This document shows positions 17,369 to 59,800 of a stretch of 64,000 nt of DNA, in pieces. Position numbers and translations under genes: made by a program. How positions within the stretch are numbered: the first letter of the stretch is position 1; each line of letters opens with the position of its first letter. The notes under the pieces were generated by a model that searched no databases, was not told the DNA's origin, and worked only from the letters and a program-made list of their open reading frames with translations. This DNA comes from Macrostomum lignano (taxonomy: Eukaryota), in assembly GCA_002269645.1 (NCBI GenBank), contig NIVC01000491.1, positions 248,001-312,000 on the forward strand, given 5' to 3'.

Positions 17369-17574
17369 ACTTTACAGAAAATGTCAACAAAGGGCCTGTC
17401 AACTTAAGCTCATAAAGTAGAGTCCCTAATTATGCCTTTGGTTGTTCTCCCCTATATCCCAAATCCAATTTTTGTCACTTTGCCAAATCCAGCTTCCTGG
17501 TGTCACTTTGAGCAGAATGACTCCACTTTATGAGCTTAAGTTGACAGGCCCTTTGTTGACATTTTCTGTAAAGT
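17369..17574. mobile_element. 206-bp MITE-like foldback with ~55-bp inverted repeats
   Basis: actttacagaaaatgtcaacaaagggcctgtcaacttaagctcataaagt and its near-exact reverse complement; no TSD seen. Confidence 0.7.
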
Positions 17575-33936: not shown

Positions 33937-36048
33937 CTAAGACTCGTACCTGAGCTCGGGATCTGCTTCAGCCGTCGCAACTCGCTCCGCTCGAGAACTG
34001 CGCCAGAGACCGGGGCTCAGCGCGAGCGACGCCTGCTCAAGCAACCGGGCCGCCGTTGACTCATTGAGGCAGGCCCTGCGCAGATCTTCCGGCTGCGCCT
34101 TGGCCCGGCCGAAGTAGCGCAGCAGAAACAGCAGCATGTGGCGGGGATGCGTCAGGCAGCGCGACAGCGGGTCGCTCAGCAGCTGCCAGGACCCCGGCAT
34201 ATGGTGAGCTCGAAACTGAAAGTCGTGCCTCAGCGCTGCCAGAGTGGCCGTTTTGAGCAGGGTCATGACGATCGGGTTGCTGGAGGCACCGCGGTTGATG
34301 GTGCCGACCGCCGCGCTGCTGTCGACGTAGCAGGCCACCTTGCCGCCGGCCAGCTGCTCCTGGAACAGAATGATGGCGAGCAGCGGCAGTACCGTCTCCT
34401 TGGCGTTGATGTGCTCGCTCAGGAAGATGCCACCGGCGTCACTGCAGAAGTCGACGAGGCGGAACTCGCGCTGGCCATCAGAGGTGCTCAGGATCATGCC
34501 ACCGGCACTGACGCAGGCGTCCGTCTCGACCGCTGCCAGCATTCGTGCACGCCGCCACAGCTTGTCGGTCGGGAACACTGGGATTGCATGCTGCCAGAAC
34601 TGCAACTGGGCCAGTAGCTCGCCGCGCACCGGTACTCGATGATGCTGCTCAGGAATAGCGATGGTTATCTCCAGAAGCGCGCGAAGCAGGGCCTTTGCAG
34701 GTTTGGCCACTTTGCAGAACCAGTTCAGTTTGCCGACTAGGTGCTGAAGGCGACGTTTTTGCAGGCTCTTCGAGTTGGCGCAGTCCTGGAGAAGTTCTCG
34801 AAGGCCGTCCATCTTCTCGGCGGGCAGTGACAGCAGGCCAGTCAATGTGTCGATCTGCACACCCAGGAAAGTGACCGAAGTGGCTGGGCTCTGCGTCTTG
34901 GCCCAGTTGATCTCAAAGCCGAGGCGCTGCAGGGTGGCCAGCAGAAAATTGTGCAGCTGCAGGCAGACCTCGTAGTCCTGGGCAGCTATGCAGAAATCGT
35001 CGAGGTATGCGATGACGACGAATTTGGACAGATGCGAGAATTGCCTGTACATGAAGCGCTTGACAGCTTGCGTTAGGCGGTGGAAAATGTTGACTGATGC
35101 CGCCGCACCGAATGGGAGTCGCGTGTCAACCAGATAGGTGGGCTGACCGTCCAGCTCGAACGTCCACCGGAGCCCCGTCGCCTTATAGCAGTCTGGGTGC
35201 ACCTGAACACTTCGGTAGGCGTGGCGTAGGTCGACCTTGCTGATGAACCAGCTTGGTGCCAGCTGCCTGGTGAGATCCTCGACATTAGCAAACTTCATCT
35301 TCTGGCGGGGCTTGTACAGATCGTTGAGGCTGTTGCCCTGTGGCGCGGACGCGTCGTGAATCAAGCGGATGGCGCCGTCTGCCTTCGGGACGGCGCCCAG
35401 TGGGCTGATGATGGTCGGCCTGGCGATGCCCAAGTCAGTTGCGCGGATGTACCGGCCAGCCACGACCTCCTCTCTGATCTGCAGCTCAACGGCATTCCGA
35501 TTTGCCTCGCAGCAGGCGGATGCATGATTTTCGAGCTGGGATTCGCTGGTCGGAGCCGCGTCGGTGATGCGAAAGCCATCGCGAATTCCCGCGATCAGAA
35601 ACTCCGCGTCCGAGTCTCCGAGCAGGACTGGTGTCCAAGCAGCAGTTAACAGCGGCCAACGTTTTCGAAGTGCAGCCACCGGGCCGGCAACAGGGCCGGC
35701 AGCAGCGCCGGCAGCAGGGCCGGCAGCAGGGCCGGCGGCTGGGCCGGAAGCAGGGCCGGCAGCAGGACCGGCAGCAGGGCCGGCGGCTGGGCCGGCAGCA
35801 GGACCGGCAGCAGGGCCGGCAGCAGGGCCGGCGGCAGGGCGAGCGGCAGGGCGAGCGGCAGGGCGAGCGGCAGGGCGAGTGGCAGGTCGAGCGGCAGAGC
35901 GAGCGGCAAGGCGAGTGGCAGGGCGAGCGGCAGGGCCAGTGGCAGTGCGAGCAGCTGTCTCGCATGGAATTAAAATTTTGGACTGTCTATCAGACGCCGT
36001 CCGCTTAGGGCTAAAACTGGTGCCGCCGCGACCCGCCTCTTTGCTCAG
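33937..36048 (-). CDS. DIRS/Ngaro-type reverse transcriptase + RNase H (pol), probably made as gag-pol by -1 frameshift
   Basis: ISPLGAVPK, RLIHDAS, KVDLRHAY, RLPFG, YLDD, FLGVQID; RNase H TDA...HINAKE...VDSSAAV...HMPG..LSDPLSR; frame open upstream through the AAGP repeat to 36156. Confidence 0.88.
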   Translation of the reverse strand: MSKEAGRGGTSFSPKRTASDRQSKILIPCETAARTATGPAARPATRLAARSAARPATRPAARPAARPAARPAAGPAAGPAAGPAAGPAAGPAAGPAAGPASGPAAGPAAGPAAGAAAGPVAGPVAALRKRWPLLTAAWTPVLLGDSDAEFLIAGIRDGFRITDAAPTSESQLENHASACCEANRNAVELQIREEVVAGRYIRATDLGIARPTIISPLGAVPKADGAIRLIHDASAPQGNSLNDLYKPRQKMKFANVEDLTRQLAPSWFISKVDLRHAYRSVQVHPDCYKATGLRWTFELDGQPTYLVDTRLPFGAAASVNIFHRLTQAVKRFMYRQFSHLSKFVVIAYLDDFCIAAQDYEVCLQLHNFLLATLQRLGFEINWAKTQSPATSVTFLGVQIDTLTGLLSLPAEKMDGLRELLQDCANSKSLQKRRLQHLVGKLNWFCKVAKPAKALLRALLEITIAIPEQHHRVPVRGELLAQLQFWQHAIPVFPTDKLWRRARMLAAVETDACVSAGGMILSTSDGQREFRLVDFCSDAGGIFLSEHINAKETVLPLLAIILFQEQLAGGKVACYVDSSAAVGTINRGASSNPIVMTLLKTATLAALRHDFQFRAHHMPGSWQLLSDPLSRCLTHPRHMLLFLLRYFGRAKAQPEDLRRACLNESTAARLLEQASLALSPGLWRSSRAERVATAEADPELRYES

Positions 36049-37024
36049 TTTTTTGATTCGGCAGCCACCGAGCTGTGTTGCAGCTTTGAGTGGCTCCCTT
36101 CGCAGATGCGGCAGATGTGGGCGAAATTGCAGGTGTGTCTGTGACAGCCTTTGTTGCTATTGAACAGGCCGCAGATGACCTGTCCAGCGGATGACAGCTG
36201 GCCCCTGCTACGGTGACCCTGGACTCCTTGACCGACCGCGACTGGGCCAGCAGCTCGCAGGTTTTTGGGCGCCGTCATATGCTTGATGATGAGGTTCAGA
36301 TCGGGGCTGTCCCAGTCGCGCTGTCGCGAGTGCTGCTGCAGCCTCATGTCCTGGTCGTACTGGAGCACCACCTTCCAGTCGTAGCCAGCATCGATCAGCT
36401 CGCCGATGTGGATGTTAAAGTTGAGGTAGGCGTTCAGACTCTTGCAGTCGGGCTGTCCATCCGTACCGGGTGCCACCAGCTGGCCGGTCTCCAGCAGTCG
36501 CTGCATGATCCGCGCGTTGGCAGCCACCCACTGGCCGAAGTTGACTCCGGACAGGCTCGGCGTTGCGCCTTTCAGAGTCAGGCGACCACGATCCTGTGTC
36601 AGCCATCCTCCCGACTGCTGCCTCTCGTCCAGAAATTCCGGGATGAGCAGCGCTGATGGCGGCCGCTGGGCTCCGGCCGAATCAAACCTCGGTTGTCGGC
36701 TCTGGTCCCCGAACAGGCTGGCGTAGATGTCCGGCCCTCCTCTGGCCAGCGGGGGCGATGCGGCGCCACTGCGGATCGACTGCACTTCATCCCGCAACTG
36801 GGCCTCAGCCTTCTGCAGTTTAAGCAGCTCGATCCTCTTCTGAGTCTGCCGAATCTGCGCTTCTGTGGCCTCCTCCGCTGGCGCAGCCCGGCGCACGTCA
36901 TCCTCGTCCTGGTCGTCGTCACCGTCGTCATCGCTGGGAGCTCGTTCGGCCTGGCTTGCAGCGAGCAGGCGGCCTATCAGCTCTTCTTTATTGCCACTTG
37001 TAGGTAAGGCCTTCTCGCGTAAGG
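36045..37024 (-). CDS. gag-like protein, 3' part (SAP remainder, acidic tract, C-terminal CCCH/CCHH zinc fingers); 5' part at 47175-47130
   Basis: ICGLFNSNKGCHRHTCNFAHICRICEGSH; frame open from 37024 to the stop at 36045. Confidence 0.8.
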
Positions 37025-37030
37025 CATCTT

Positions 37031-37979
37031 ACTACTAAGGGCCGGCAGATCCGCCGACTCTGGAGGTGAGGTGGGTGTCAACCCTCCTCGCCTCTCATTG
37101 GCTGGCGCCCCGATCACTAGGTGATCGATACCCGTATCGATATCGGCGCTCGGCGCGCGCGCGCCGCAGGCACGTGGCGCCAAGCGCCGTCCAGCCGCAG
37201 GCGACCCTCCCCAGCCACCGGCGACCCTCCCCAGCCGCAGGCGCACCTACCGATATGTATGCTCACCCTACCGACATGTACCCCGATATGTATGCCCTCC
37301 CGAGCCGCAGGCGCACCCTCCCTCCAGAGCAGCAGGCGCCCATGCTGCAGGCGCCCCATGCTGCAAGCACCCCGAGTGTACACTCTCCCAAGCCGCAGGC
37401 ACCCGAGTGTACACTCTCCCATGCCGCAGGCACCCCGAGTGTACACTCTCCCCAGTACGGGTGTACACTCTACCACTCTCCCGATATGTATGCATACACA
37501 GATATCTAGTCAGCGATATTAGGCTAGTGAAAACTACTTATAGTAGATGAAATTGCGTATATTTACATAAAAAGTAGATAAAACATATTGGTAGGTGTGA
37601 ATAATGACGCATAATGCATATTAAAATGTACATATTGGAGCATATGAGCAGCAAAAACACACAATGTAGGTGCATGGGCAGAAATAGACAAAGCAGGTAC
37701 TGTAGGCGCTACATAGGTGGAAATACACACAGCAGGTTTACAAAGTGTACTTTCGATACATATCGGATTAATGTATAAAGCAGGTTTACAAGGCATGCAT
37801 AAGGTGTAGTTGTATAATGCAGGTGCGCATGTATAATCCGATTATAGGCAAACGCCCAGGTGCAATTTCAACAGACGCGTAAATAATGTCACACCGACTA
37901 AAGAGTAAATATTGTCTAACCAGCAGGTGCATAAAAATTTTAAACAAAAGCGGTTCGGGGAAATACCAAAAGGGAGGTT
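37031..37979. repeat. Left terminal inverted repeat (949 bp)
   Basis: Reverse complement of 46182-47129 with only a few mismatches and one indel seen. Confidence 0.95.
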
Positions 37980-38233
37980 TTAGCCGCCCGTTTTCGCCAC
38001 CACCGCCGCCCTAACCCTCTTATGGGTACAATTGCGTTGAAAGTATTTCGGGTCATTAGGTTGTAATGACCTCCATATTTTAGGTGGGTGGACTCGAGCC
38101 CGGGGCCAGCCCATTACAGTTTTTTGGGCCGGCCCCTCTGCCAATTTCCTCCCTAGGAGCGAGCTATCAGAATTGGTCTTTTAACCCCCGTGTATACACA
38201 CATAGAGGCCCCCCAGCTAGCGCCCATTCTAAC

Positions 38234-39310
38234 CTACCCAGTGTACAGTGTTGGGTTCCCCAAACCGCGTACAAAGAGAAAAACCCTTATCAGTCAATCT
38301 CCATACGCTCCCTCAGGGCTGTCTCGTACGCGGCCTCTTCCTCCACGCTCTCGAAGCAGTAGTCGGATGACTGGCAATGTGGAAATTATAACAGTCAATG
38401 TAGATAGAATATATGCAAGGTATATGATTAGATGAGTTGTGTATATAATGTAATATCTTACCAAATCTAAATCGTCCTCCAGCCGCCACAGACGTAGAGA
38501 CGCTGTATAGCGCACCAACGAAAGGTGCTCCTCCCAGTTGGAGGGACAGATAGCTGCGGCGGGCTCATCCCACGCGGTTGGCCGCGCTCCCGGACCGGCC
38601 AGGTACGCCTCAGAGTCGGGGGCATACGAATTGCGCCCCATCAACCAGTCCTGGTGCAGAGTCTCAGCCTCCAGCACCTCCCGTAGGCCGGCACCCCTCG
38701 CAACCAAAGTATCAAGAACCCGATTAAAGGCTCTGACAAAGGTGGCTTGGGAGGGCAGCCCGCCTGGGTGGCGAGACCTCAACCAGTCAATGTCCCCGCG
38801 GAAAAATGAGGCCACAATGCGGGGAAAGCGCTCACGAACCACGGCGATCTCCTCAGACATATCCTCGTCCTCGTCGTCGAAGAGAAGGAGCGTAGCGGCT
38901 GATGATATTGAGGCCCGGTGGGAGGTAGTTGAAGCAGCAGCAGAGACGGGCGTAGTAGAGGCGGCAGCAGCAGAGACGGGCGCAGCAGAGGCAGGGCCGG
39001 TTGTGGTCAGCTCCTCAACAGAGACGTCAAAGAGGGCGGCTGAGGCGGTAGTCAAATCGGAGGCAGTAGCAGCAGGGGCGCCGTTCACAACCCCGCCGAT
39101 AGCCAGCAGCGGGAGGTCAAAAACTTCAGACTCGGTGTCGCTATCATAGGACATAGCCCAAGCTAGATATTGATCAGCCTCCCAATTATCACTTCCGTTG
39201 TTTTCAGTGCCTAGGGGAACTATGTGTTCTGGGATATCCCCGTCGAGGCTGGTTAACTCTTCAGTCGGGCGATTATTATCCCAGAGGTTGGATAGAGCTC
39301 GGCGGGACAT
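38234..39310 (-). CDS. Orphan acidic/Ala-rich protein of the element; probably 2 exons (39310-38462 and 38367-~38227)
   Basis: 338-aa ORF with its own TATATAA (~39380-39387) and CCAAT; TTG|gtaag donor and ttgccag acceptor suggest a spliced 3' end; no family recognised. Confidence 0.55.
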
Positions 39311-39424
39311 GCTAGAATCAACAGAGAGTAAAGTATTAGAGCTGAGATAGGGTTTGACTCTCTGGAGAGGGGAAACACTAATTATATAGACGGATCGAGT
39401 GAGGCGGTGTGAGCCAATAGGAAA

Positions 39425-39958
39425 CTAGCAGTCCCAACCCTCGTTAAACAGATTTTCCCAGGGCGGAGATTGGTAGGGTTTGAGACCCACGAGCTGAAGA
39501 ACATCCACCTCAGTCCCGGCTACCGGAGGCGTGTCTGTCTTGACTCGCTTGGCTGGAGGGGGTGCCTCAGGTGCCGGCTTGAAGAGCTTGTCCAAATGGG
39601 CGGCAAACAGCCTGCGCCACAGTTCAGGCGTGAATTCGATCGTGTAGCGCCAATTAAACTTTGGTTCCCGATTGAGCCAATTGCGCAGCAAACGGATCCT
39701 CCCTCGCGAAGCTTCAACTGCCTTGAAATTGCCCAACAGGACCCGCTTGTTCACGTGAAGGCGGGCAGCAGCCTCCAGGTCAGGGCGCGCAGCTTCGAGC
39801 TTCTTCCACTCTGGCTCGGCCAAGTAGATTGCAGGGAAGCCGTCCTTCCACACTCCAGCCTCGTTGGTGTAGAGACGCCGAATTTCAATCAAGTTGTGTT
39901 CAGTTTCAAATGTGGGCTTCCGCGCCACAAAGTTTTCGTATAGAGAGATAGAAGACAT
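39425..39958 (-). CDS. Tandem PC4-like ssDNA-binding protein candidate (177 aa)
   Basis: IEIRRLY..EAG.WK.G..AIYLAEPEWKKL resembles the PC4 consensus DIR.Y...G...P.KGISL..EQW..L; second weaker copy RLLRNW...YTIEFTPELWRRL; NLS-like PAKRVK; TATA at ~40008-40013. Confidence 0.6.
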   Translation of the reverse strand: MSSISLYENFVARKPTFETEHNLIEIRRLYTNEAGVWKDGFPAIYLAEPEWKKLEAARPDLEAAARLHVNKRVLLGNFKAVEASRGRIRLLRNWLNREPKFNWRYTIEFTPELWRRLFAAHLDKLFKPAPEAPPPAKRVKTDTPPVAGTEVDVLQLVGLKPYQSPPWENLFNEGWDC

Positions 39959-40202
39959 GATTTAGCAGCAGCAGCAGCAGAGAGCTCTCTGACAGCCGTG
40001 CAGCGCCTTATATACCCCCGGATGGAGGGTGGGGTGGGTGGTGATTTTGGGGGTGATTTTTGATGATTTTGGTTGGTTTTTGGCGATTTATCCAATAACA
40101 GGCGAGCTGAGCAGATTTTTTAGTATATATACAGACCCCCAGAGCCAGGGTAGAGAGATAATCCTTCTCTCCGCTCGCTCTCTCACACTCTCTGTTTGCA
40201 AA

Positions 40203-43200
40203 ATGGCTAAACGCAGCGCCGCAGCAACTGCTTTCCAGGCTGACAAGAGGCAACGTCTTTATGGTAAGTTTTAATTAATTTCTGTCTAGACTGTAGTTGC
40301 TAGGGTGGGGGTAGGGGCTGAGCAGCAGCAGCAGCTGCAGGGTCTGTGGGACCGCAGAGTAAACAACAAAGACTGGGACTGCTGCGACAGCTGCAGGGGT
40401 CTAGACTGGAGTTGCTAGGGTGGGGTGCTGCGGCAGCTGCAGGGGTTTAGCCAAGACAGACTGGGGCTGCAGATAGGGTGGTGTCTAGACAGGCTGCAGC
40501 AGGGGTGCAGATAAGAAATTGCAGCAAAAACAGAGAGTAGCTGCGGCTGGGTGGCAGAGTAAACAACAAAGACTGGGACTGCTGCGACAGCTGCAGGGGT
40601 CTAGACTGGAGTTGCTAGGGTGGGGTGCTGCGGCAGGGTCTGTAACAGAGAGTTGCAGGGGAGGGCTAGACAAGTTTCAGCCGGGTTAGCAGCAGCTGCA
40701 GGGTCTGTGGGACCGCAGAGTAAACAACAAAGACTGGGACTGCTGCGACAGCTGCAGGGGTCTAGACTGGAGTTGCTAGGGTGGGGTGCTGCGGCAGCTG
40801 CAGGGGTTTAGCCAAGACAGACTGGGGCTGCAGATAGGGTGGTGTCTAGACAGGCTGCAGCAGGGGTGCAGATAAGAAATTGCAGCAAAAACAGAGAGTA
40901 GCTGCGGCTGGGTGGCAGAGTAAACAACAAAGACTGGGACTGCTGCGACAGCTGCAGGGGTCTAGACTGGAGTTGCTAGGGTGGGGTGCTGCGGCAGGGT
41001 CTGTAACAGAGAGTTGCAGGGGAGGGCTAGACAAGTTTCAGCCGGGTTAGCAGCAGCTGCAGGGTCTGTGGGACAGCAGTCTAGACTGGGGCCTCGGGTG
41101 GGGTGTTGTCTAGACAGGGAGGGTGTGCTGATAAGAAATTGCTGCAAAAACAGACAGTTGCTAGGGTGCTGCGGCAGATAAGAAATTGCTGCAAAAACAG
41201 ATAATCGTTGGGGCTGGCTAGACAGGCTGCAGCTAGGTGCAAATTGCTGCGACAGAGAGTTGCAGGGGTGAGTAAACAAAGACTGCTGCGACAGGCTGCA
41301 GCGGGGGTGCAGATAAGAAATTGCAGAGAGTTGCTGCGGGGACAGCAGAGTAAACTCTGTTAAGAAATTGCTGGGGCTAGGGCGGGGAAACACGCTGGGG
41401 CCAGGAAAATGACAGATTCTTCTGGTTTTTTATCTCCTTGTGTTTTTTCAGACGCGTTTGTTCCGCCTGCTCAACCTGAATCTGTTACCGGACCGGGTGA
41501 GTTATCTAGCCCCCATTCCTCAGACAGACCCACGGGCTGACTCACACTCCCCCATTCCCCCCATGCAGGTTTTACGGCCCGGCTGGATAATCAGCGCGAC
41601 CTCCCCAAGTTTAGGGCAAAGGGCGTTGAATATGTTGTAAAGCTAGATGACACCGAAGATTTACGCGAGACATTTGCCAGTTTGCTCGATGTCTTTAAGC
41701 AAGATTTGGCTGGTGATGACTTTATGGCGGCTAAATTCGAGAGTGATAATATGCTCAAAGCAGCCCACACTCCCCCGGTACGCGCAGCCCGCATGACAGC
41801 AGAGTTGTTGTTTAAGCACATTGACAAGATTGTGCAGTCAGACGCAAGCGTACTGTCGAGCAACTTTTCTATCCGGTTGCTAAAGGCCTGGGTGCCTCGA
41901 GGTGGCTGTGCTCTCGAGAACAAACATCTAGAGGAGCGCCACACCTTCTCCAAGCACTATGTCCGCATCACCAACTCGGACAAGAGATGCCTGCTGCGCG
42001 CTCTGGTCGTGGCCTGCGCCTACCTGCAATTTGTGGTCAAGTCCATCACCGAGCAGGTGTGGCGTACAATCAAGGCCAATTCGCCTGCCCAGACTAAGCT
42101 GGTGGCGGAGCTGCAAATCGAAGCGGGCCTCTACTCGGTAAGTTTCTAGTATTTTTCCTGATAATAATTTTTACACAGTCCTGGAATACTAAAAGAATTT
42201 ACACAGTATCAGGGAATACTAAAAGAATTTTTACACAGTATCGTGGAATACTAAAAGATATATTTTCTGATAAGAATTTTTACACAGTATCGTGGAATAC
42301 TAAAAGATATATTTTCTGATAAGAATTTTTACGCAGTATCATGGAATACTAAAAGAATTTTACATAGTATCAGGGAATACTAAAAGAAATATTTTACCCC
42401 CCACACAGACTCTTCAAACCGTCTCGCAGGCCGGTCCTTTTGGGGTGGATGCACTGCCCGAAGCGATCCGTGCCCTGAACCGGCTGCATCCAGGCCACGA
42501 TTTCGGTGTACGCGTGTACCGCGCAGAGGAGGCCAACAGGTGCATCTTCAACCTGCCTGGCACCGAGATTCTGCACCTCCACCTGGTCGAGCAGCACTTT
42601 AATGTGGTTACCAAGCTGCCTGCGTTTTTCGGCTCCGATCACTACTGCCCCAAGTGCGAGATGGCCTATGATTGCAGCAACGCCAAGCACAAGTGTGCTG
42701 ACGCCTGTAGCACCTGCAAGACTCCGGGCTCCAACTGTAAGGCAAACCGCGCATATGTAAGATGCCATGATTGCGGGCTAAATTGCTATAATGCTCAGTG
42801 CCTAGAAAATCACAAGCGCAAGAATAAGGCCGGCAGATCGCGCTGTGATTCGGTCCACGTTTGCGGCACGTGTGGTTATCTAGAAGAACTAAAAGTAGGC
42901 CAGCCCCCTGAGCATCAGTGCGGTTACGCCAAGTGTCCAGTCTGCAAGCAGTACGCCGAAACGGCCACCCACGAGTGCTTTGTCACCCCGCCAAAAGCCA
43001 AAGAGTCTAGCGCCCCGTATGTTTACTATGATTTCGAGACGTACTTGGACTCTGGCAAGCAGCACCGGGTACACTTGGTTACGGCTGCCACCTCCTGCGA
43101 GGCGTGTCCCAAACTCTTCCCCAGGCCCCGCTGCAGCGTGTGCGGGGGACTACACAGCTCAGCCAATTGCATTGCGGGACGCGATTTGGCACTCGATTTC

Positions 43201-44356
43201 ACGAGCTGTGTCTCGCACAATGACTGTGCCTGTGGGATGCGAGAGTTTGTATCTGTCGGGCCGCACTCTATCGATGCCTTTTACTGCTGGCTGACTAGTG
43301 TGTTCAAGCAGGGGGCAATTGCTATTGCGCACAATGGCTCCGCGTATGACGCATTCCTCCTGCTCGGCGCCCTACTCAACGGACTGGCCAAGAAGAAGCC
43401 GCAGGTGATCTTCCAGAACAGCCGCCTAATGTACATGAAGTGCGACAAGATCACCTTCAAGGACAGCCTCAATTTCATCCCTATTGGTCTGGCGCAATTC
43501 CCAAAGGCGCTTGGTTTGGGCACCCAACTGACCAAAGGAGATTTCCCGCACGTGTTTAACCAGCCGGAAAACTGGGGGTACGTGGGACCCTACTGCTCAA
43601 TTGATATGTATGGAGGAAAGAAAAACAAGCAGCATGACTCCATCGCCGACTGGCTGGCCAAGCAGGAGGGACAGGTGTTTAATTTCAATAAGGAGTACCT
43701 GGACTACTGCCTGCAGGACACGTTAATTTTGCGGGAAGGCTGTCTAAAGTATGCCCGCCTGATTAAGGACATTTGCGGACTGGACGCATTTGTTCAATCC
43801 AACACCATTGCGGGCTTGGCCATGGCAGTATTCACCACCAAGTTTATGGAGCCCAACACTCTTGGGGTGATTTCCCGCCGGTCCGATGTACAGTCGCACA
43901 AGGCGCGGTGCTGGCTTGCGCATTTGAATGCAACCGAGTTTGGCGGCCGGTTGCGGACAGCGGACTCGGGCGGCGAGGCTTTCGCCATGGGCCGTAAGGT
44001 CGACGGCTTCGACCCAGAGACCAGGACAGTGCTGCAGTTTCACGGCTGTTTCTTCCATGGCTGTCCCAAGTGCTTCCCCAACGGTGACGTGCTGCACCCG
44101 CTCAAGAACCAGCCAATGCGGGCGATTTATGAAGAGACTGAGCGCTTCAGCCGGCTGCTCTCCACTGCATACAATGTACGTGTCATGTGGGAGCACGACT
44201 ATCAGGGCGAGGGAGCGCCAGTCCAGCAGCCCATCCGCCTGGAGGAAGCCCTGTTTGGCGGTCGCACCGAGGCTTTTGTCCCGCACGCCGAGGCCACCGA
44301 GACTGTAGAGCTGCGCTATCGGGATGTGGTAAGTTTTTTCAAAATTTCTTATGTAC

Positions 44357-44391
<35 letters not shown>

Positions 44392-45826
44392 CACACAGTT
44401 GACATGGGTTTGAGTTTATCTTATCCTCTTATCCTCTAGGTGTCGCTCTACCCGACTGTCAACAAGTTTGACAAGTACCCTGTCGGGCACCCGGTTCACC
44501 ACCCCGAGCCTCATCTACTGGATGAGCTGCAGCTGGCCCGGTATTTTGGCATCGCCGAGGTGTCAATTCTGCCGCCAACCAATCTCCACATTCCGCTACT
44601 GCCCGCCAAGATTAACAAGAAGCTGGTTTTCGGCCTCTGCCGCGTCTGCATGGAGACACAGTGCAGCAGCGAGTGTACACACACTGACGCTGAGAGAATG
44701 CTCCGCGGCACGTGGTCGACCCCAGAGCTCCACAAAGCCCTGCAGTTGGGTTACAAGCTGCAGTCAGTTCATGCCCTGGCCTATTGGACCGAGACTCGCA
44801 CGGGCCTGTTTGCGGATTATGTAAACACCTTTTTAAAGCTCAAAGCAGAGTCTAGCGGTTCGCCGGGGATGACTGAGGACGCCAAGGCTGCCTACATGGC
44901 CAGCTTTTTCGAGCGCGAAGGCGTCCGGCTGGAAAAGGTGGAAGAAAATCCCGGCCTGCGCTTTGTGGCCAAGATTTTTCTAAACTCGTAAGTTTTTCTA
45001 CTTGCAGTGGGGGACCATGTTTTTCTACTTTCAGTAGCCAGATATACAAAAATTTATTTTTCCCTGCAGGCTCTGGGGCAAATTCTGCCAGCGTGACGAC
45101 CTGACCTCCACAGAGATTGTGGACAGCTACGAGGCGTGGCTGCAGCGCCTGACAGACCCCTCGATCAAGGTCAAGTCGTGTGAGCCAATTGGGGAGAGCT
45201 TCATGATGCTCGAGTACAAGCCCCGATTTGGCGGTGCTGGCGAGCGGGCATTCAAGTACGCCAATGTACCTATTGGAGTTTTCACCACCTCCCACGCCCG
45301 GCTGCGACTCTACGAGGCTCTGGAGGGTCTAGGAACCCGAGTCATTTACGCCGATACTGATTCGTAAGTAATTTTTTCACTGTCTCTGTCTCTCTTTCTC
45401 CCCTTAACACTATATCCTTCTCCTCCTCCCAGGGTCGTATACCGGTGCTCTCCGGGCGAGTACGAGCCTCCGGGCGGTTCGAGTTTGGGGCAGTGGACTG
45501 ACGAAGTACCTGCTGGCTGCCGCATGGTACAGTTCACCACGGGAGGCCCCAAGCTCTACCGGTACGTGGTGGAGAAGCCCGACAGGTCGCTGTACTCGGT
45601 GCTCAAGTGCAAGGGCATCAGAGTCACGCCCGAGATTTCCGAGCGTGAGGACGAGCTGCAGGAAATTCTGCGCCACGGGGGCTCTGTCCGCCTGCCCCAG
45701 GCCCAGTTCAGGCGCGATAAGGCCAGCTGTACAATCCGGACCCTGGAGATGGACAAGACTTTCCAGCGCGTGATGACTAAGAGGGTGTATGGGGCCGCCA
45801 GCCGTCCGTATGGCTTTCGGGAGTGA
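40203..45826 (+). CDS. polB: Protein-primed family B DNA polymerase, 7 exons: 40203-40263, 41452-41496, 41569-42137, 42409-44328, 44440-44987, 45070-45363, 45433-45826 (3831 nt, 1276 aa)
   Basis: ExoI YYDFET, ExoII AHNGSAYD, ExoIII YCLQDT; motifs YRDV|VSLYP, KIFLNS|LWGK and YADTDS|VVY are restored by GT-AG splicing; all junction phases checked against the ORF frames. Confidence 0.93.
40290..41400. repeat. Complex repeats inside polB intron 1, including a 361-bp tandem duplication
   Basis: Identical ORFs 40485..40673 and 40846..41034 offset by 361 nt. Confidence 0.85.
42165..42390. repeat. AT-rich minisatellite inside polB intron 3
   Basis: ttttacacagtatcgtggaatactaaaaga repeats. Confidence 0.85.
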
Positions 45827-46181
45827 GTGAGAGATAAGGATCTGTCTTTGCACGCCTGGGATTCCCCTATGTGCCCACTTGGGATCCCTTGACTCTTGGG
45901 GTTGAAAAATGGTTTTACGCTCGCACTGTACTTAGGGGTCCTTACTCATTTGACACCTCCACTGTACATTGAGCGGGATCCCCTCAAGTGTTAAAACTCC
46001 CATTTGACACCTATTCCCTCGGGGCGGTTTGTGGCCCAGCGGTCCGCCTCTTGGAGTAGAACTCCTGACATGAACTTGCTGCGCTGATTAGCGTACTGAT
46101 AGCGTAATCGAAATACGTCCATTTTCCTAGCCCACTTGTGGGTTTAATTGTGTTGAAAGTATATCGGGTCATTAGGCCGTG

Positions 46182-47129
46182 AACCTCCCTTTTGGTATTT
46201 CCCCGAACCGCTTTTGTTTAAAATTTTTATGCACCTGCTGGTTAGACAATATTTACTCTTTAGTCGGTGTGACATTATTTACGCGTCTGTTGAAATTGCA
46301 CCTGGGCGTTTGCCTATAATCGGATTATACATGCGCACCTGCATTATACAACTACACCTTATGCATGCCTTGTAAACCTGCTTTATACATTAATCCGATA
46401 TGTATCGAAAGTACACTTTGTAAACCTGCTGTGTGTATTTCCACCTATGTAGCGCCTACAGTACCTGCTTTGTCTATTTCTGCCCATGCACCTACATTGT
46501 GTGTTTTTGCTGCTCATATGCTCCAATATGTACATTTTAATATGCATTATGCGTCATTATTCACACCTACCAATATGTTTTATCTACTTTTTATGTAAAT
46601 ATACGCAATTTCATCTACTATAAGTAGTTTTCACTAGCCTAATATCGCTGACTAGATATCTGTGTATGCATACATATCGGAGAGTGGTAGAGTGTACACC
46701 CGTACTGGGGAGAGTGTACACTCGGGGTGCCTGCGGCATGGGAGAGTGTACACTCGGGTGCCTGCGGCTTGGGAGAGTGTACACTCGGGGTGCTTGCAGC
46801 ATGGGGCGCCTGCAGCATGGGCGCCTGCTGCTCTGGAGGGAGGGTGCGCCTGCGGCTCGGGAGGGCATACATATCGGGGTACATGTCGGTAGGGTGAGCA
46901 TACATATCGGTAGGTGCGCCTGCGGCTGGGGAGGGTCGCCGGTGGCTGGGGAGGGTCGCCTGCGGCTGGACGGCGCTTGGCGCCACGTGCCTGCGGCGCG
47001 CGCGCGCCGAGCGCCGATATCGATACGGGTATCGATCACCTAGTGATCGGGGCGCCAGCCAATGAGAGGCGAGGAGGGTTGACACCCACCTCACCTCCAA
47101 AATCAACGGATCTGCCGGCCCTTAGTAGT
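46182..47129. repeat. Right terminal inverted repeat (948 bp)
   Basis: Reverse complement of 37031-37979. Confidence 0.95.
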
Positions 47130-47175
47130 CATCTTTGAGGGCCTGCACGGTCATGCTGCCTAACGTAGAGTCCAT
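47130..47175 (-). CDS. gag 5' fragment (MDSTLGSMTVQALKD), cut off by the Polinton-like insertion
   Basis: Joins in frame to 37024 when one TSD copy and the element are removed. Confidence 0.85.
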
Positions 47176-51559: not shown

Positions 51560-52657
51560 TAGAGGTCAAACAGGATTGAAATCTTTGGGCGGGATCAAGA
51601 TCAAGAATAATTTTTTCTTGAGATTGGGATTGGGATTCAGGAATCAGGATCAGGTCTTTTAGTGTATTGTACATGTAAAGTTAAACAAAATTGAGAAAAT
51701 ATTATTAAAATCAAGAAGTAAAACACAACGAAATTGATATGAAGTTTTGTAACCAACAAAGTAAATAATGTAATGAGCAAGGAGGACTTAAGTAGGACAG
51801 GAAACCTCGTTTCTTAGAAAAGTTTTGAAGGCACTTTTTCCCGAAAAAATACACTACGGAGATAGGAAGTTTTCATTTTTTCAGCACAAAAATTGTTATT
51901 GCGTTTGATAGGAGGCAGATTCAGTGTTCATCTTTTGATATTTTGTGCCTTTTTTATTGCTCTATTGATATTTATAAAGCTTTTTGTTCAGAAAATTAGG
52001 ATTCCATGTTAATTTTTTATTTTACGTATATTTTCGCGTGTCTTGTGCTTGAAATACATTAGAATGCCACGGCTTGGCTCTTTAGCTTTATGAGTCTTTT
52101 TTATCATTCTTACCCAACTGTGTAGCAAATATTTGTAACAGAGATGATAAAATAGGCTCATAAAACCAAATATTGGAGCTGTGTCATGCATTTTTGTGAT
52201 TTTTAGATACAGGAAATATATGTAGAATAAAAAATTAATATAGAATCCTAATTTTCTGAACAAAAAGCTTTATAAATATCAATAGAGCAATAAAAAAGGC
52301 ACAACATATCAAAAGATGAACACTGGATCTGCCTCCTATAAAACGCAATAACAATTTTTGTGCTGAAAAAATGAAGACTTCCTATCTCTGTATAGTGTAT
52401 TTTTTCGGGAAAAAGTGCCTTCAAAACTTTTCTAAGAAACGAGGTTTCCTGTCCTTCTACTTAAGTTGTCCTTGGTAATGAGTACAAGTTAAAGCAAAAT
52501 ACCTTCAAGTAATTACTAATTCTATAATTTTTTAATCAAAAGACTTGTTCCCGAATCTTGAGTTTTTTAGGGTCAGGATTCTGGTCCTGCGGGAATTCAA
52601 TTTTCCTTGGGATCCGGGATCCCAAGATTTGGGGATTGGGATCCCATCCAACCTCTA
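51560..52657. mobile_element. Non-autonomous hAT-type element, 8-bp TSD atgccaag
   Basis: Ends TAGAGGT...ACCTCTA; gggat(t/c) subterminal repeats; TSD at 51552-51559 and 52658-52665. Confidence 0.85.
51778..52474. mobile_element. 697-bp MITE with ~225-bp TIRs, 8-bp TSD gtaatgag, nested in the previous element
   Basis: CAAGG...CCTTG ends; long near-perfect inverted arms; TSD at 51770-51777 and 52475-52482. Confidence 0.88.
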
Positions 52658-55600
52658 ATGCCAAGCACTTTGTCTGCTACTACCCAGCCTTGAACTGAAA
52701 CTGGCTCAACCACCTCAGGCGGCCAGGCCCAACCTGTCCCTGGACGATGTTTGCCAGCCCAAGAACATCCCATGGCTCATCCGGTTCCTTTGGGCCACCA
52801 AGCGAGCCTCCATCTTCTCCACCGAAGACAACGATGCAGACAGGACTGGCAGACCTCCCTGACCGGCCCCGCGCCCTAGCCTATGCAGGCCTTTCAGGGA
52901 TTAGTGGAATGGGCGTCGCTTGCCTGTCGCCTCCATGCTGCATCTTCGGACTGCCCTGCAGCTAAGTCAAGTAAGTCAATAGGTCATAGACACACTAGAT
53001 GACGAAATGACTAGGAACCGGGGCTGTGTAGCCACTGAGCCCCTGTCCGTCTGCACTGGCGGAACTGCCACTGCGTGCCTATTTCGATTAGGGATATGCC
53101 GTATTGATAAAAATTGATACGTATAGGCTAATTATAATATTATCATAGGCCCCCTAATCATACCCATGATGGCTATGAATATAATATACACAACAAAAAA
53201 TATAGACCCAGTAGTATAGTGTGGCAGATTAGTAAAAGCTGACCTGTGTCGTTTTAAATTCCATATTTTACGTTTACCAAATGAACTGTTAATAAACTTT
53301 GAAGCGTGCGAACAAGATTATGAAGAGCGTGGAGCCGCTCCGCATTGAGGAAAAGGGAGAATCCTTTTCAAAAATTAATCAGTTAAAAGGCAAATTTAGT
53401 ATTTTCTAATAAAATTTTTTCAAAACAAAGAAAAAAATTAGGAAAAGTAAAACATTTATAGTTTTTTAATTACATTTTTAAGCATTATAAAATTGCTTTG
53501 TTTCACTTTTTGTAATTATAAACGGAAATTTTAAATATCCTTTCATGCGTCACGCAGCTCGGCCCGCGCCCGCAACCAACCCTTATTATTCTTACTTCAC
53601 TACTTGTTCTACATGCTTGAGTAGGCCTAGTCCTCGTGCTTGCATGCAGCTTGAATGAGTGAGTTAGTGAGAGAGTGAATGCATGAACTTTTCGCATATC
53701 ATCTTAAAATCGCACCATGAAAGTGAGCATAGGCCATAGGGTAGGGTGCGATTTGGATCATTTAGCACCTTGTTTTTGGCGAAAAAGAAAACCCTGATCC
53801 CTATTTGCTGAATCTAGTCCATTTTTGTAATTTGGTAATTACTTGGGTAATAACCTTTTGGTCCTTTTTGATAATAACTATTTTGGTGACAGACAATAAG
53901 ACCTTGGCTTGGACTAATATGATATTGATAACATAGCTCTATTATTGTTAACATTGTCATTGGTGTAAGACCAAGATGGCCACACACCAAGATGGCCACA
54001 ACATTGAATATTTATTATATCTACTCTCTTTTTCTATCTACTATTAATTAGCAATATAATATAGCCCCCCCCTATTAAATTATTTTTGTTTAATCAATTT
54101 TAGGCCTATTCATAATTCATAAATACTGATACAATAATAGATTTGAAACTAATTAGGCCTAATTAGGCCTATAATACAAAACCTTTATTTTTTTAGTGTT
54201 TGTGCCAATTTATTCTCTATCATTACATCTATCATATCTATTACAATCTGTTTATTAAAAAATGATTGCTAATGGTAATGCTAGCTATGCAAATAATTAG
54301 GATAAGTATGTAAATGTCATAGGGTAGGCCTTTTTATTTTGTGCTAGGTTACTTGTTTCATATAGTGGACAAATAGGTAGGCCCCTATAAGTTAGGCTAC
54401 AATAAAAGCTAGGCCTAAGTCCAAAAGGAATGATTATATAATACAATTCTATTATATCTATTTTCCTAATTATTAAAAAAGGATAAGAGTTAAATATATG
54501 TATCTCATCTTATTATTATCTATTTAGACAGTTAGAGCTATGGCCATCTTGGTATGTGACCATCTTGGTCATGTGCCTTGTCATTAGTCTTAGGCCTACA
54601 CTTGTAAGAATACTGGAGAATTTTTTAGCTGGATCTATCTTTAGCAGAAAAGAATGTCATCATTACAATTTTCATGTCTAATAGGCCAACAAAAAGTTAT
54701 AATGAAAAAGCATATAAGAGGTATATAAAACATTTGTATAGTCTTTATAATTATAATTTTCAATGATTACTAGGCCTATTCCTTTGATTTACAATCATTT
54801 TTCCACCCACATTTCAGTTTAGGATCCCCATGTAAATTTCTACTTTAGTAATAATGGCCTATTCAAAAATTGAAAAAAAAAACTAGGCCTAGGCATATCT
54901 GCATATTTGGTTCATTAAAGAAACTGAATTAAAATAGAAGATCTAGTGACTTGACTCTTGTGTCTAATGTCTTATATATCTATTTTGGTTCAGTTAAATT
55001 CATAATTATTTACATATATTGTTTCCATTTATATGATCATAAACCAAAGTGGGTATATAACTAATATAAGATTATCTTTATGGATTTGTCAATGGATTTG
55101 GAACTAGGGACCTATAAAATTGATCACTAAAACCTTTTTATACATGTTAATAAAATATAATGTTATAATGGATAACTAAAAAAAACATACATGCGCAACA
55201 GTCAGCCAATCTGGCCAACCGATTTGGCGGCCAATCAATGAAATCACAAAAATGCCCACTAAAAAATACCAAAGTAGTAGTACTAAGTAGCTGACGAGGC
55301 ATTTTGACTTAATAAAACATTTTTTACATGTAAGTTGCATTTTTGCCAAAAACTACATCGCATTTTTGTTAAAACTAAGTTGCATGGCCGACTGAATTTT
55401 GGAGGTTGCGCATGTATGAAAAAGAATAGGAGTGCTTGTCAATTGTTGCTTTGTGTTGGTTTTAAGTTGGTTTGTGTTGGCCACAATTTTGATAAAAACA
55501 ACATTGTCTTATCCCTCTCTAAGGGATAAGCTATCCCTCCCTGTCTTATCACTAATTTCAATGATCCTAAACCAAAGGAATGCCTAATGATTTATATGCA

Positions 55601-56926
55601 TAAATAGAAGGATTTTTTTGCTTCAAATTTGTTTAAATAAAGTATCTTACCAATTTTTCCTAAAAAGTTATTGGCATATACATAGTGACTAGCCTTGTTA
55701 TTTTCTTATAAGATTATACTAGGCCTTAGGCCAAACTTTTAATGCTCTTTGCGTCTTTGGCCACAAAAATGTAACTTTCCATGTTTATTTGACTGGTTGA
55801 AAACCATTTAATTGTAGCAATCACATTGTATCAAGAGCTAGCCTTTGAAGTATAATTGAAAAAAAGTTTGTTGAAAAAGTAAAGCACATTTTTAACCTTT
55901 TTGGCTATTTTGTTTTCTAGTGAAGAGGTGATAGCATGTTTTGAAAAAGGTAAAAAAATAGAAGGTTTAGTGATGCATACTCTGCATTCAATAAAAATAT
56001 AACCCAGATGTTAAAACAAGTAAATGTTAATGATTTTTTGTAACAGAGTTTGGGTATTAGCCATTTGCACCTTTTATTCATTGAAATATATACCATGGGA
56101 TGGTGGGTAAGTCAGCTGCATTAGTAGATTCTCTTCTGAGAAGTTGAAATTGTTATATCAATAGATCATCCAATATGAATTAATCTACTTTAGATTTGAT
56201 ATGCTTCTAACCAATAAACAAATAGACACTGAATCAGTCTTCTAAGTTCTAGAATCTAGTTAGCACTATCTTGTGAAAAAATTATGTCTTGTCTAGTCCT
56301 AGTCACCAGTTGATGTTTAAATATATCATAAAGAGGTGCCCCCAGTATCAGTAACTGGTATTGATCATTGATAGGATTTGACACTAGTGGTAAGTACTTA
56401 GTGTCCTATACTTACCATTGGTTACTTGCTTTACTCATATTTCTAGGCTTTAACACATTCTTCTGCTCAGGACATATTGTCTCACTCATGGCTGGCAAAT
56501 CTTCAAGAACATTTTAATATTCACAAACAAATCAGTTTGATTTGTCTAGTTTATGTAATAGGCTAGGATCTAGGTCAATGAAACAGACAGTTATGCAACC
56601 AGATAAAGGCTAACAGAAGCCAGTGTGTTCCCACACAGGTGTTGGGGATTGTTGATCCCCAATTGCACCCCTCCTACTAATCTGGCTGCGCTGTATGGTC
56701 GGTCATTTTTCCAGTGTATCTAAAAATAGAATGCCAGAGTGCCATTGAAAGTAAAGTGAAATCTGAATCTTTCCCCTTTAACCCTAATAGAAGAGATAGG
56801 CAGGCTCCCACGTTTTGCCATGGTAGATATAGATAAATGTGCACCTCTAAATGTACATTGTGAAATCTTTCCTATCCCTAGTCAATGTGCATTTCTTTCC
56901 TTCATGTTCGACCCTACTATCAAGCA

Positions 56927-59800
56927 ATGCCTGGCGCTAAAAAGCAACAGCAGCAGCAGCAAGACTACAGTCAGTTAAAACTGACCGAATTGCGAGAGCT
57001 TTGTCACAATCGCGGCATCAAAGTGTCCGGTAGGAAAAGCGAACTAATTGATCGATTAATTAATCTGGATTCGAACGGACTCGATTCGAACAATAGTTCG
57101 AATACTATTGCCGGGCATAGTAAGAAGAAGGCGGCAGCTGCAGCAGCAACAGATTCATTTGGCTTCAGCGTGGCTTACCGAGGCGCTCTGGTTGACTCCG
57201 GCGCCGGGGGCAGCGGCTCCGGCGGCTTTGACAGCTCATCAACGGCCACCATGGAAAGCAACGATCATTTGTCTCGAACCGAGTCGCAGTTTCAACTACG
57301 CCAGCTGGCTAAAGAACGCGAACGAGCCGAACGGGACCGATTAGTACTGTGGCGCCGTCCATTTGCTACAGTTTACTATGCACTGTTGGAGTGCAATTTT
57401 CTATTGACTAATTTGATTATACGGCTGTGGCATAATCGGCTGAGGGTAGGCCTAGTTGCTCTACTGCTCATGGCTCTGGCCGGTCTGAGACATGTTGAAG
57501 GTCCGCATCGTCGGTATTTGGACATCGTCGAAGACACTGGACTGTGGTGCTCCTGGTGGATCTGGCTCGGGATCTTGTCTAGTGTCGGCTTAGGCACCGG
57601 CCTGCACACGTTTCTCATCTATTTGGGCCCGCATATCGCCCGGGTTACACTGGCCGCTTACGAGTGTCGCACTTTGGACTTTCCTCAGCCGCCATATCCT
57701 GCCGAGATTGGCTGTCCTAGCGAGACTGTGCCAGATACAGTGCTGGCGCCTTCTATATGGGCCATCTTGTCTAAGGTATCTTCAACTGCCTTCTCAAATC
57801 CTCAAAAATCCTCTCTGCCTTCTCAAATTCTCACAGATCCTCTCCTGTCTTCTCAAATCCTCACAGATCCTCTCCTGCCTTCCCAAGTCCTCACAAATCT
57901 TCTCTGCTTTCTCAAATCCCCACAGATCCTATCCTACCTTCTCAAATCCTCACAGATCCTATCCTACCTTCTCAAATCCTCACAGATCCTATCCTACCTT
58001 CTCAAATCCTCACAGATCCTATCCTACCTTCTCAAATCGTCACAGATCCTATCCTACCTTCTCAAATCCTCACAGATCCTATACTGCCTTCTCAAATCCT
58101 TACAGATCCTCTCCTGCCTTATCAAATCCTCACAGATCCTCTCCTGCCTTTCCAAGTCCTCACAAATCTTCTCTGCTTTCTCAAATCCTCACAGATCCTA
58201 TCCTACCTTCTCAAATCCTCACAGATCCTATCCTACCTTCTCAAATCCTCACAGATCCTATCCTACCTTCTCAAATCCTCACAGATCCTATCCTACCTTC
58301 TCAAATCCTCACAGATCCTATACTGCCTTCTCAAATCCTTACAGATCCTCTTCTGCCTTCTCAAATCCACACAGATTATCAGGATAGGATCTGCCTTCTC
58401 GTAAATCCTAAGTTGGGATCCTAATCCGATTGCAAAAATCCGCAGGTCCGACTCGAGGCGTTCAGCTGGGGCGCTGGCACGGCCATTGGCGAATTGCCGC
58501 CCTACTTTCTTGCCCGAGCTGCCCGACTGTCCGGCATGGATCCGGACAGCGAAGAGCTGGACGAGTTAGAGGAGCTGCTGCACGAGCAGCGACATCTGGC
58601 CCGGTCGCCGGCTGCTAAAACCCAGTTGCCGTTTAGTACTCGAGTCAAGCTGCTTGTAAGCTGAACTGTGGTTGCTGTTAGTAAATTTGGGATTATTGAT
58701 GAAGGATAAAGACTTCAGGAGCATTGTCCCTCTCTGTGAATCTCCATTCAGGACAAAGACTTCAGAAACCCCCCTTTGAGAATATCCCTTCAGGACAAAG
58801 ACTTCAGAAACCCCCCTTGAGAATCTCCTTTTGGGATAAAGACTTCAGAAACACGCCTCTGAGAATCTCCCTTCGGGATAAAGACTTCAGGAACATTGCC
58901 CCCTCCCCTTTGAGAATCTTCCTTCAGGATAAAGACTTCAGGAACATTGCCCCTCCCCTTTGAGAATCTTCCTTTAGGATAAAGACTTCAGGAACATTGC
59001 CCCTCCCCTTTGAGAATCTTCCTTTAGGATAAAGACTTCAGGAACATTGCCCCCCTTTGAGAATCTCCCTTCAGGATAAAGAGTTCAGGAACATTCCCCC
59101 CTCCCCTTGAGAATCTCCCTTCAGAATAGACTTCAGGAACATTGCCTCCTCAGAGAATTTCCTTTCATAATGCTTCATCTAGAAAATCGCTCTTAATGCA
59201 AATCTATATAAATTGTTAGTTTTTAAGCATGCTTTGAACAATATCCTTATATACCTCAATTTCGAATCCCCACAGGTGCACAACCTTGTTCAGCGCCTCG
59301 GCTTCTGGGGCATCCTGCTGTGCGCCTCGATCCCAAATCCTCTATTCGATCTAGCCGGCATCACATGCGGTCATTTTCTAATCCCATTTCAAACATTCTT
59401 CTTTGCCACCCTAATTGGCAAAGCTGTGATTAAAATGCACCTACAGATGCTGTTTGTTGTGTTTGCATTCTCGCCGCATCTGGTTGAACGCTTGGCCACC
59501 TGGATTGGCGGGGCGCCATTGTTTGGCCAGTTCATGCAGTCGCTGATTCGCGACCTGCTAGAGAAACAGCGTCGGTCGCTTCATCGTCCAGCTGGTGGAG
59601 AGGCCGCAGCTGCAGCGGCAGCCTCCAGCGGTAGCGCCGGTCGCAGCCTCCTACAGCAGGGCTTTGAGCTACTGGTTGCTGGCATGATCCTGTACTTTCT
59701 AGTGTCAATTGTTAATTCCTTTGCTCAGAGCTACTACAAACGGCAATACCATCGGGACAAGGCGGTACGACGAGCTGAAGAGACGGCTAAGTTCTACTGA
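56927..59800 (+). CDS. VMP1: Vacuole membrane protein 1 (TMEM49) with N-terminal SAP domain; exons 56927-57775, 58446-58655, 59276-59800 (~527 aa)
   Basis: [32 protein letters not shown]|[44 protein letters not shown]; phase-0 GT-AG introns. The start could be the in-frame ATG at 56885. Confidence 0.93.
57780..58400. repeat. 30-bp minisatellite in VMP1 intron 1
   Basis: tctcaaatcctcacagatcctatcctacct repeats. Confidence 0.92.
58700..59160. repeat. ~41-43-bp minisatellite in VMP1 intron 2
   Basis: aggataaagacttcaggaacattgcccctcccctttgagaatc repeats. Confidence 0.88.

Follow-up and report, generated by a model that had tools for sequence, protein, structure and literature searches.

The 64,000-nucleotide stretch of the flatworm Macrostomum lignano analysed here (GenBank assembly GCA_002269645.1, contig NIVC01000491.1, positions 248,001 to 312,000 of the forward strand; hereafter the window, to which positions refer unless a locus is named) contains a mobile element of 10,099 bp (37031-47129) whose DNA polymerase gene, polB, is interrupted by six introns. 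The gene encodes a DNA polymerase of family B, protein-primed (pPolB) and of the Polinton type, and its introns are real spliceosomal introns, three of which lie inside the catalytic motifs A, B and C. The element belongs to a group of related copies, referred to as family A, and a second group, family B, is present in the same genome. We conclude, with good confidence, that polB supplies the functional polymerase of a replication module that derives from Polintons, is mobile and depends on help in trans.

A preliminary description made from the letters of the window had placed six GT-AG introns in polB, and all six were confirmed at these positions (Table 1), with the frame kept across the seven exons. 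The spliced gene measures 3,831 nt, i.e. 1,276 codons and a stop codon, and contains no internal stop in the window copy. All six donors read GT(A/G)AG and all 3' ends consist of a pyrimidine tract followed by (C/T)AG. These are the ends of U2-type introns, and they are accompanied by removal in RNA for introns 2-6 and by conservation for intron 1. In families A and B alike, introns 3, 5 and 6 abut or interrupt a serine codon TCG. The best protein matches, up to 99% identical, are Macrostomum lignano entries. Exons 4 and 5 match the Pfam family PF03175 (DNA_pol_B_2). Since exon 4 by itself gives this match at 4e-15, searches based on open reading frames (ORFs) would fragment the gene, as had been anticipated, but would not miss it; chimeric gene models are already present in UniRef. 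In an alignment with 80 full-length homologues, in which the breaks were marked by X, all the residues of Exo I, II and III, of motifs A, B and C and of KxY are present, and motifs A, B and C are broken by introns 4, 5 and 6, respectively, in agreement with the first reading of the sequence. The intron-free stretches of the three motifs match the homologue length in 79/80, 80/80 and 56/80 cases, respectively, a length control that is biased by the choice of the 80 homologues, among 98, for contiguous motifs A and C.

Spliced transcripts had been proposed as a check of this gene model. Four sequencing runs from four studies, out of 23 listed, were used; their RNA status was presumed, as it is not on record. 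Their contigs were aligned to positions 41400-46150, a range that covers introns 2-6. Each of these five introns is exactly skipped in contigs of at least two runs (Table 1), and a third run also skips intron 3, though with two letters changed. A single contig of 1,679 nt skips introns 4, 5 and 6. The contigs establish splicing of introns 2-6 at canonical GT-AG sites at the level of the family. The closed intron-4 junction (gap of 0-30 nt), the only junction searched, has no place in the genome assembly, so the joined contigs are not due to an intronless DNA copy in that assembly. Sister copies with an uninterrupted polB had been named as the sign of recent disabling insertions; the intron-4 junction is closed in no genomic copy. 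A possible second acceptor lies 21 nt into exon 4 (42409-42429) and corresponds to the acceptor of family B; the RNA contigs use the upstream one.

Contigs covering unspliced introns were also present, and they can be considered together with the location of the introns. The presence of three out of six introns in motifs A, B and C, one in each, has a chance probability of 2.5e-4 to 4e-3 according to motif width, calculated post hoc. The inteins of family-B polymerases, too, tend to sit in motifs A, B and C. Splicing could act as a regulatory switch, in which splicing restricted to germline or stem cells would set where active polymerase is produced, or the introns could shield the element from the silencing of intronless elements. 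The P-element is a precedent for a regulatory switch of this kind. Silencing of intronless elements by HUSH is described in human cells (PMC8770142). Nevertheless, the unspliced contigs are possibly pre-mRNA or DNA. The idea that introns are general to the Polintons of this host was rejected, as two other families possess intronless polymerase frames of 750 and 1,036 residues spanning motifs A-C. Introns are therefore not required in this host, and a regulatory switch appears unlikely.

The introns are also preserved among the other copies of family A. A 20-mer of exon 4 was found at 64 places in the genome (control 0), which gives about 64 copies, and a genome search yielded 40 matches at 90-100% identity, the window copy included (40 of 268 candidates scored). 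In the 19 best sisters, GT..AG is kept in 94/94 measurable instances of introns 2-6, and the intron 1 ends GTAAGT..CAG are invariant in the 19 of 20 loci in which they could be measured. Of 570 donor positions 7 are substituted, and of 285 acceptor positions none; the intron interiors carry 404 substitutions and 2,233 gaps in 10,640 positions. Sister introns vary in length (487-762 nt for intron 1, 138-320 for intron 3 and 65-121 for intron 4), and their lengths are spread over all three mod-3 classes. Exon differences at codon positions 1, 2 and 3 amount to 1.8, 0.9 and 10.2%, respectively. The median ratio of non-synonymous to synonymous substitutions (dN/dS) is 0.074 when the window is compared with 19 copies; the full set of 190 pairs gives 0.092, and dS reaches 0.18. 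The polB coding sequence is under purifying selection, and all its exonuclease and polymerase motifs are kept. Perfect duplications of the target site (TSDs), 6 bp long and each different, flank 12/12 sisters with both ends visible, which supports the view that family A is still, or was recently, mobile. One family-A copy (L021:1289-6172, on G000:C271) is broken near its 5' exons by an insert of about 30 kb, which includes an unrelated intronless protein-primed PolB with a frame of 1,036 residues.

These data bear on two other explanations: that polB is a dead gene in which the introns inserted recently and disabled it, and that polB is a host-domesticated gene. Exon deletions in sister copies could be taken in this sense, as could the fact that intron 2 of the window copy and intron 4 of many family-B copies can be read through in frame. 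Both explanations are nonetheless very improbable given the spliced contigs, the conserved splice sites, a dN/dS below 0.1, the intron positions common to family B and the dozens of dispersed insertions flanked by terminal inverted repeats (TIRs) and distinct TSDs.

The repeats first noticed in introns 1, 3 and 4 (a 361-bp duplication, a minisatellite and a CA run) are real, but their description as host satellites was not upheld. Intron 1 measures 1,188 nt in the window, where it contains the 361-bp duplication, which was not seen in 19 sisters. CA runs of at least 10 units occur in 2/20 copies, and a comparison of the introns with 282 kb of non-family DNA of the same genome, a small sample, gave no match. 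These copy-specific repeats look like local slippage or expansion rather than captured host satellites. Four of the six introns are 69-111 nt long. An introner origin was rejected, since no intron matches another and their flanks share 0-3 nt, and self-splicing group I or II introns were rejected on the basis of 0 Rfam matches at gathering score across the element. Intervening sequences are likewise described in Polinton-like elements, namely in dinoflagellate proviruses colonised by introners (PMC12166617) and as group I introns in Polinton-like viruses (PMC12220804). In contrast to these, the polB introns are mutually unrelated and old, keep their positions and are spliced out of the core of the polymerase.

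The age of the introns can be judged from family B, whose members share about 60% amino-acid identity with family A, mostly measure 9.6-10.4 kb and end in ACTACG. Where the two ends of a family-B copy could be seen, a perfect 6-bp TSD was present (6/6 copies); two of these copies lie in simple repeats. The motif-A intron is present in 22/24 family-B loci examined, and introns 2, 3, 5 and 6 have the same place and phase as in family A wherever both flanks were found. Exon 1 of family B is homologous to that of family A and has a phase-1 donor. The intron sequences of the two families are no longer alignable. In a FastTree phylogeny of 30 sequences, families A and B are sisters with a support of 1.0 and are nested among Polinton polymerases. 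We infer that the introns were gained once, before the split between A and B. The preliminary description had proposed a nuclear, spliceosome-dependent lineage that gained introns and host satellites while staying mobile; old introns and mobility are retained from this proposal, and the satellites are not. Viral and metagenome contigs supplied 85 related loci, among which the motifs are contiguous in 76/81 (A), 60/72 (B) and 58/65 (C) of the cases covered, and 40/55 loci have A to C in a single open frame; the gaps were inspected in four of these loci and the motif variants in 19. The metagenome Polinton polB L251 contains two GT-AG introns (1864-1941 and 2232-2308) at other positions than family A, one of them about four codons before the family-A intron in motif A. 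Since the L251 introns differ in position and L251 lies elsewhere in the tree, intron gain in Polinton polB probably happened more than once.

The element ends in ACTACT//AGTAGT, and its gene order is TIR, accessory ORF, PC4-like gene, polB and TIR (Table 1). The assignment of ORF-L1 draws on several modest lines of evidence. The Pfam PC4 match is weak (E 0.1) but above cut-off in 3/3 family-B homologues, the Atlas leads for a PC4-like identity are 0.86-0.87, and the structural model resembles PC4 (1pcf; Foldseek probability 1.0, E 0.012) with no match at E<=0.001. ORF-L1 may accordingly be called PC4-like. ORF-L2 gave no usable Pfam or Atlas match and has a probable seventh GT-AG intron at about 38371-38461. 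The stretch that separates the divergently oriented PC4-like and polB genes has TATA-like runs on both strands and is a putative bidirectional promoter.

Table 1. Features of the polB element, its target and the similar elements without polB.
Feature	Position	Strand	Remarks
Insertion target outside the element: retroelement with SAP-domain gag-like ORF and 739-aa reverse-transcriptase frame	33937..37028	-	
Left 6-bp TSD, CATCTT	37025..37030		
Left TIR, ~949 bp, starts ACTACT	37031..37979	+	TIR positions 10-27 are a cassette variable between copies
ORF-L2, accessory gene of no assigned function	38291..39424	-	absent from 8/19 sister left ends
ORF-L1, PC4-like single-stranded-DNA-binding protein	39425..39958	-	177 aa
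Intergenic region of divergent PC4-like and polB genes	39959..40202	.	TATA-like runs, both strands
polB exon 1	40203..40263	+	61 nt, also in 17/19 sisters; homologous first exon in family B
Intron 1	40264..41451	+	phase 1; copy-specific 361-bp duplication; conservation basis
polB exon 2	41452..41496	+	45 nt
Intron 2	41497..41568	+	phase 1; skipped in 3/4 runs
polB exon 3	41569..42137	+	569 nt
Intron 3	42138..42408	+	phase 0; variable-length minisatellite; exact skip in 2/4 runs
polB exon 4	42409..44328	+	1920 nt; Cys-rich region, exonuclease motifs I-III, start of motif A
Intron 4	44329..44439	+	phase 0, in motif A; skipped in 3/4 runs
polB exon 5	44440..44987	+	548 nt
Intron 5	44988..45069	+	phase 2, in motif B; skipped in 4/4 runs
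polB exon 6	45070..45363	+	294 nt
Intron 6	45364..45432	+	phase 2, in motif C; skipped in 2/4 runs
polB exon 7 and stop codon	45433..45826	+	394 nt
Right TIR, ends AGTAGT	46182..47129	-	
Right 6-bp TSD, CATCTT	47130..47135		
polB-less elements of 7-10 kb	G000:C56, C93, C176, C181, C201, C303, C436, C558		
polB-less elements of 7-10 kb (rest)	G000:C625, C660, C843, C1197, C1201, C1575, C1607		

The element is inserted in the SAP-domain ORF of a retroelement, presumably DIRS-like, whose reverse-transcriptase frame is still open. A second SAP-domain ORF of 501 residues (56882-58387) runs into a 30-bp minisatellite, a 26-bp minisatellite forms at least five separate arrays between 22363 and 33405, and small inverted-repeat elements, probably similar to miniature inverted-repeat transposable elements, are found at 51791-52458, 17369-17574 and 53969-54570. 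Inside each end of the polB element, 18 nt (37040-37057 and 47103-47120) are highly variable between copies and consist of two mosaic blocks, each about 9 nt long. The two tip cassettes of a copy are mostly identical; they differ between left and right in 4/15 polB-bearing pairs, which suggests an exchange of ends between copies before integration. The two ends of the window element differ at four positions within the first 30 nt. The left module is variable as well, since the family-B locus L082 contains a dUTPase-like frame and a PC4-like gene, as read by eye, both of which are missing from other copies.

Compared with known systems, the element is closest to the replication module of Polintons/Mavericks. 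It shares with them a pPolB that has Exo I-III and Pol A-C and is 30-37% identical to the polymerases of Polintons from outside Macrostomum, long TIRs, which measure about 949 bp here (Polinton range 100-1,500 bp), and a 6-bp TSD (Polinton range 5-8 bp). The canonical relative L217 likewise has a PC4-like last ORF, as read by eye. Yet the element is not a Polinton by integrase, capsid, size, end motif or absence of introns. It encodes no rve integrase, capsid genes or packaging ATPase, and it ends in ACTACT//AGTAGT, unlike the (AGT)2, (AG)3 or (AC)3A ends given for vertebrate elements (PMC8097293). Its 10,099 bp and six introns contrast with a Polinton length given as 13-25 kb (bioRxiv 2023.08.22.554363) and with intact vertebrate Mavericks described as devoid of introns (PMC8097293). 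Adintoviruses have an animal-associated PolB of the same broad class, but they are defined by a hexon and a chromodomain-bearing rve integrase, both absent here; the passages on them in PMC8502044 and PMC11071296 make no mention of spliceosomal introns in PolB. Segmented bidnaviruses and the Drosophila Vesanto virus also carry a pPolB on a TIR-flanked unit (PMC8363768, PMC8502044). Their segments share terminal sequences, as do the element and others with the same ends, and offer a model for a possible partner. These are, however, single-stranded DNA viruses described with NS1 and a parvovirus-type capsid; the present element integrates with a 6-bp TSD, and NS1 was not seen in it.

No integrase was found in the element by ORF and Pfam analysis, and a tblastn search with the L217 integrase gave no match in the window. 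Nor did the window match the L217 proteins used as queries for the major capsid, the minor capsid and the ATPase. No coding room is left in the element for a protease, for which no separate query was made. Since the element does not encode an integrase, this activity would be supplied in trans. The same genome contains several Polinton-like families encoding capsid and integrase, two of which, with ends seen, start with AGTAG. At least four further Polinton-like capsid families were observed (L101-L120, L109:1-3722); one has a PLA2-like domain beside the integrase, and they feature F5/8 domains and exchangeable replicases (a D5 primase-helicase or an ORF bearing an endonuclease VII domain). 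The best 120 of 2,025 homologues of the family-D integrase include no Macrostomum-named entry. Neither exon 5 nor the tip pattern gave a match in scans of viral contigs. A genome search with Pox_A32 also gave none and is uninformative, as Pfam found such ATPases in individual loci.

The family-A tip pattern has 146 exact places in the genome (control 0). Among 100 of these, 15 TIR pairs enclose a family-A polB and 16 do not. The polB-less ACTACT elements comprise 15 of 7-10 kb (Table 1), which enclose neither a family-A nor a family-B polB, and a TIR-only element of 463 bp on C670. Six of the larger ones span G000:C56:88644-97024, C93:602814-611469, C176:800975-809109, C436:114944-124196, C660:142160-151060 and C1575:298727-307895; the median sizes are 9.5 kb for the polB-bearing pairs and 8.9 kb for the polB-less ones. 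That the polB-less pairs hold a third polB family was rejected, as none of the 90 places of the polB search lies in them.

Two explanations of the polB-less elements can be weighed. In the first, with a little under an even chance, the polB element is a deletion derivative moved as an ordinary parasite by the integrase of a co-resident complete Polinton, with the polB-less elements as additional derivatives that are likewise non-autonomous. The co-residence of several capsid- and integrase-encoding families, the existence of the TIR-only element and the variable cargo (ORF-L2 is absent in 8/19 copies and a dUTPase-like frame is read by eye in one family-B copy) are in line with it. In C. elegans, polB with TIRs and without integrase is described at 10 loci (bioRxiv 2024.01.15.575659). 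On the other hand, the ends ACTACT and ACTACG differ from the AGTAG of those families, the architecture is stable across two diverged families and no capsid-bearing parent of the family-A polymerase was found among the 37-38 candidates scored with pPolB1 queries.

In the second, which refines the step of integration in trans, the polB-less elements are a dedicated partner with integrase and perhaps capsid genes, in a bipartite Polinton. This remains a doubtful possibility. The two types of pairs are about equally frequent and share the same ends, their summed median sizes of about 18 kb fall inside the Polinton size range of 13-25 kb (bioRxiv 2023.08.22.554363), and the tip cassette of 7/16 polB-less elements is, by eye, exactly that of some polB element. 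The difference between ACTACT and the AGTAG of the capsid-bearing families makes a dedicated integrase plausible. Moreover, on G000:C150 an unpaired family-A tip at 81056 has an integrase core 6.5 kb inside (74124-81089). However, another family-A copy (L025:1926-3700) lies about 700 bp from a family-D integrase; such ends beside foreign integrases suggest nested insertion or, for C150, a partner segment. The 16 polB-less pairs overlap none of 73 double jelly-roll capsid, 141 major-capsid and 150 best integrase matches, lists for which 126 of 195, 140 of 384 and 150 of 2,793 candidates, respectively, were scored and in which intron-split capsid or integrase genes would score low. A spliced polymerase and single-stranded-DNA-binding half accompanied by an ACTACT partner of equal size, with exchangeable 18-nt cassettes and possibly intron-split integrase or capsid genes, can be proposed only tentatively.

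Whichever helper is involved, a working polymerase in a module mobilised in trans would function as follows. Host splicing removes the polB introns at their GT-AG sites, as observed in the family for introns 2-6. By analogy with Polintons, the polymerase and the PC4-like protein would copy a linear excised form by protein priming from the TIR ends, and new copies would integrate with a 6-bp duplication through a retroviral-type (rve) integrase encoded elsewhere. The anciently gained introns would persist through DNA-to-DNA copying, because there is no cDNA step and an intron could be lost from a catalytic motif only by exact deletion. The element apparently depends on the splicing machinery of its host and on help from another element.

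Several points weigh against this interpretation. The contig letters differ from the window copy at many shared sites, so the transcripts come mainly from sister copies and splicing is a property of the family. The runs are presumed to be RNA, their contigs carry neither strand nor level, the comparison concerns introns 2-6, with intron 1 resting on conservation, and the search for an intronless DNA copy concerned the intron-4 junction. Small exon deletions, mostly with in-frame stops, were found in 11/18 sisters measurable over exons 2-7 and represent either decay or assembly error. A published M. lignano assembly is described as having 180 Mb of duplicated blocks (PMC5730564), and copy counts may be inflated by this duplication, yet the TSDs differ between copies. 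The linear extrachromosomal form and the polymerase activity are deduced from the polymerase class, and the integrase in trans is postulated.

The literature search revealed no spliced Polinton polB and no description of Macrostomum Polintons; Repbase and supplementary tables were outside this search, and these polymerases might appear in the genome tables of bioRxiv 2023.08.22.554363. Polinton surveys are described as using intronless ORFs as a mark of intactness and as seeking polB beside an integrase (PMC8097293; bioRxiv 2023.08.22.554363; bioRxiv 2024.01.15.575659). Family A passes neither filter although it has spliced transcripts, evolves under selection and moved recently; surveys of this kind may thus take live elements for fossils. 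Should the polB-less elements be its partner, the pair would be a segmented integrating Polinton, of which no example was found in the literature searched, and, with an intron in each of the three catalytic motifs, its replication would come under the control of host splicing. The presence of intronless capsid-encoding Polintons in the same genome, together with the RNA data that exist for this laboratory flatworm, provides a natural comparison that bears on how a virus-like element becomes a splicing-dependent nuclear transposon and on why introns persist in catalytic motifs.

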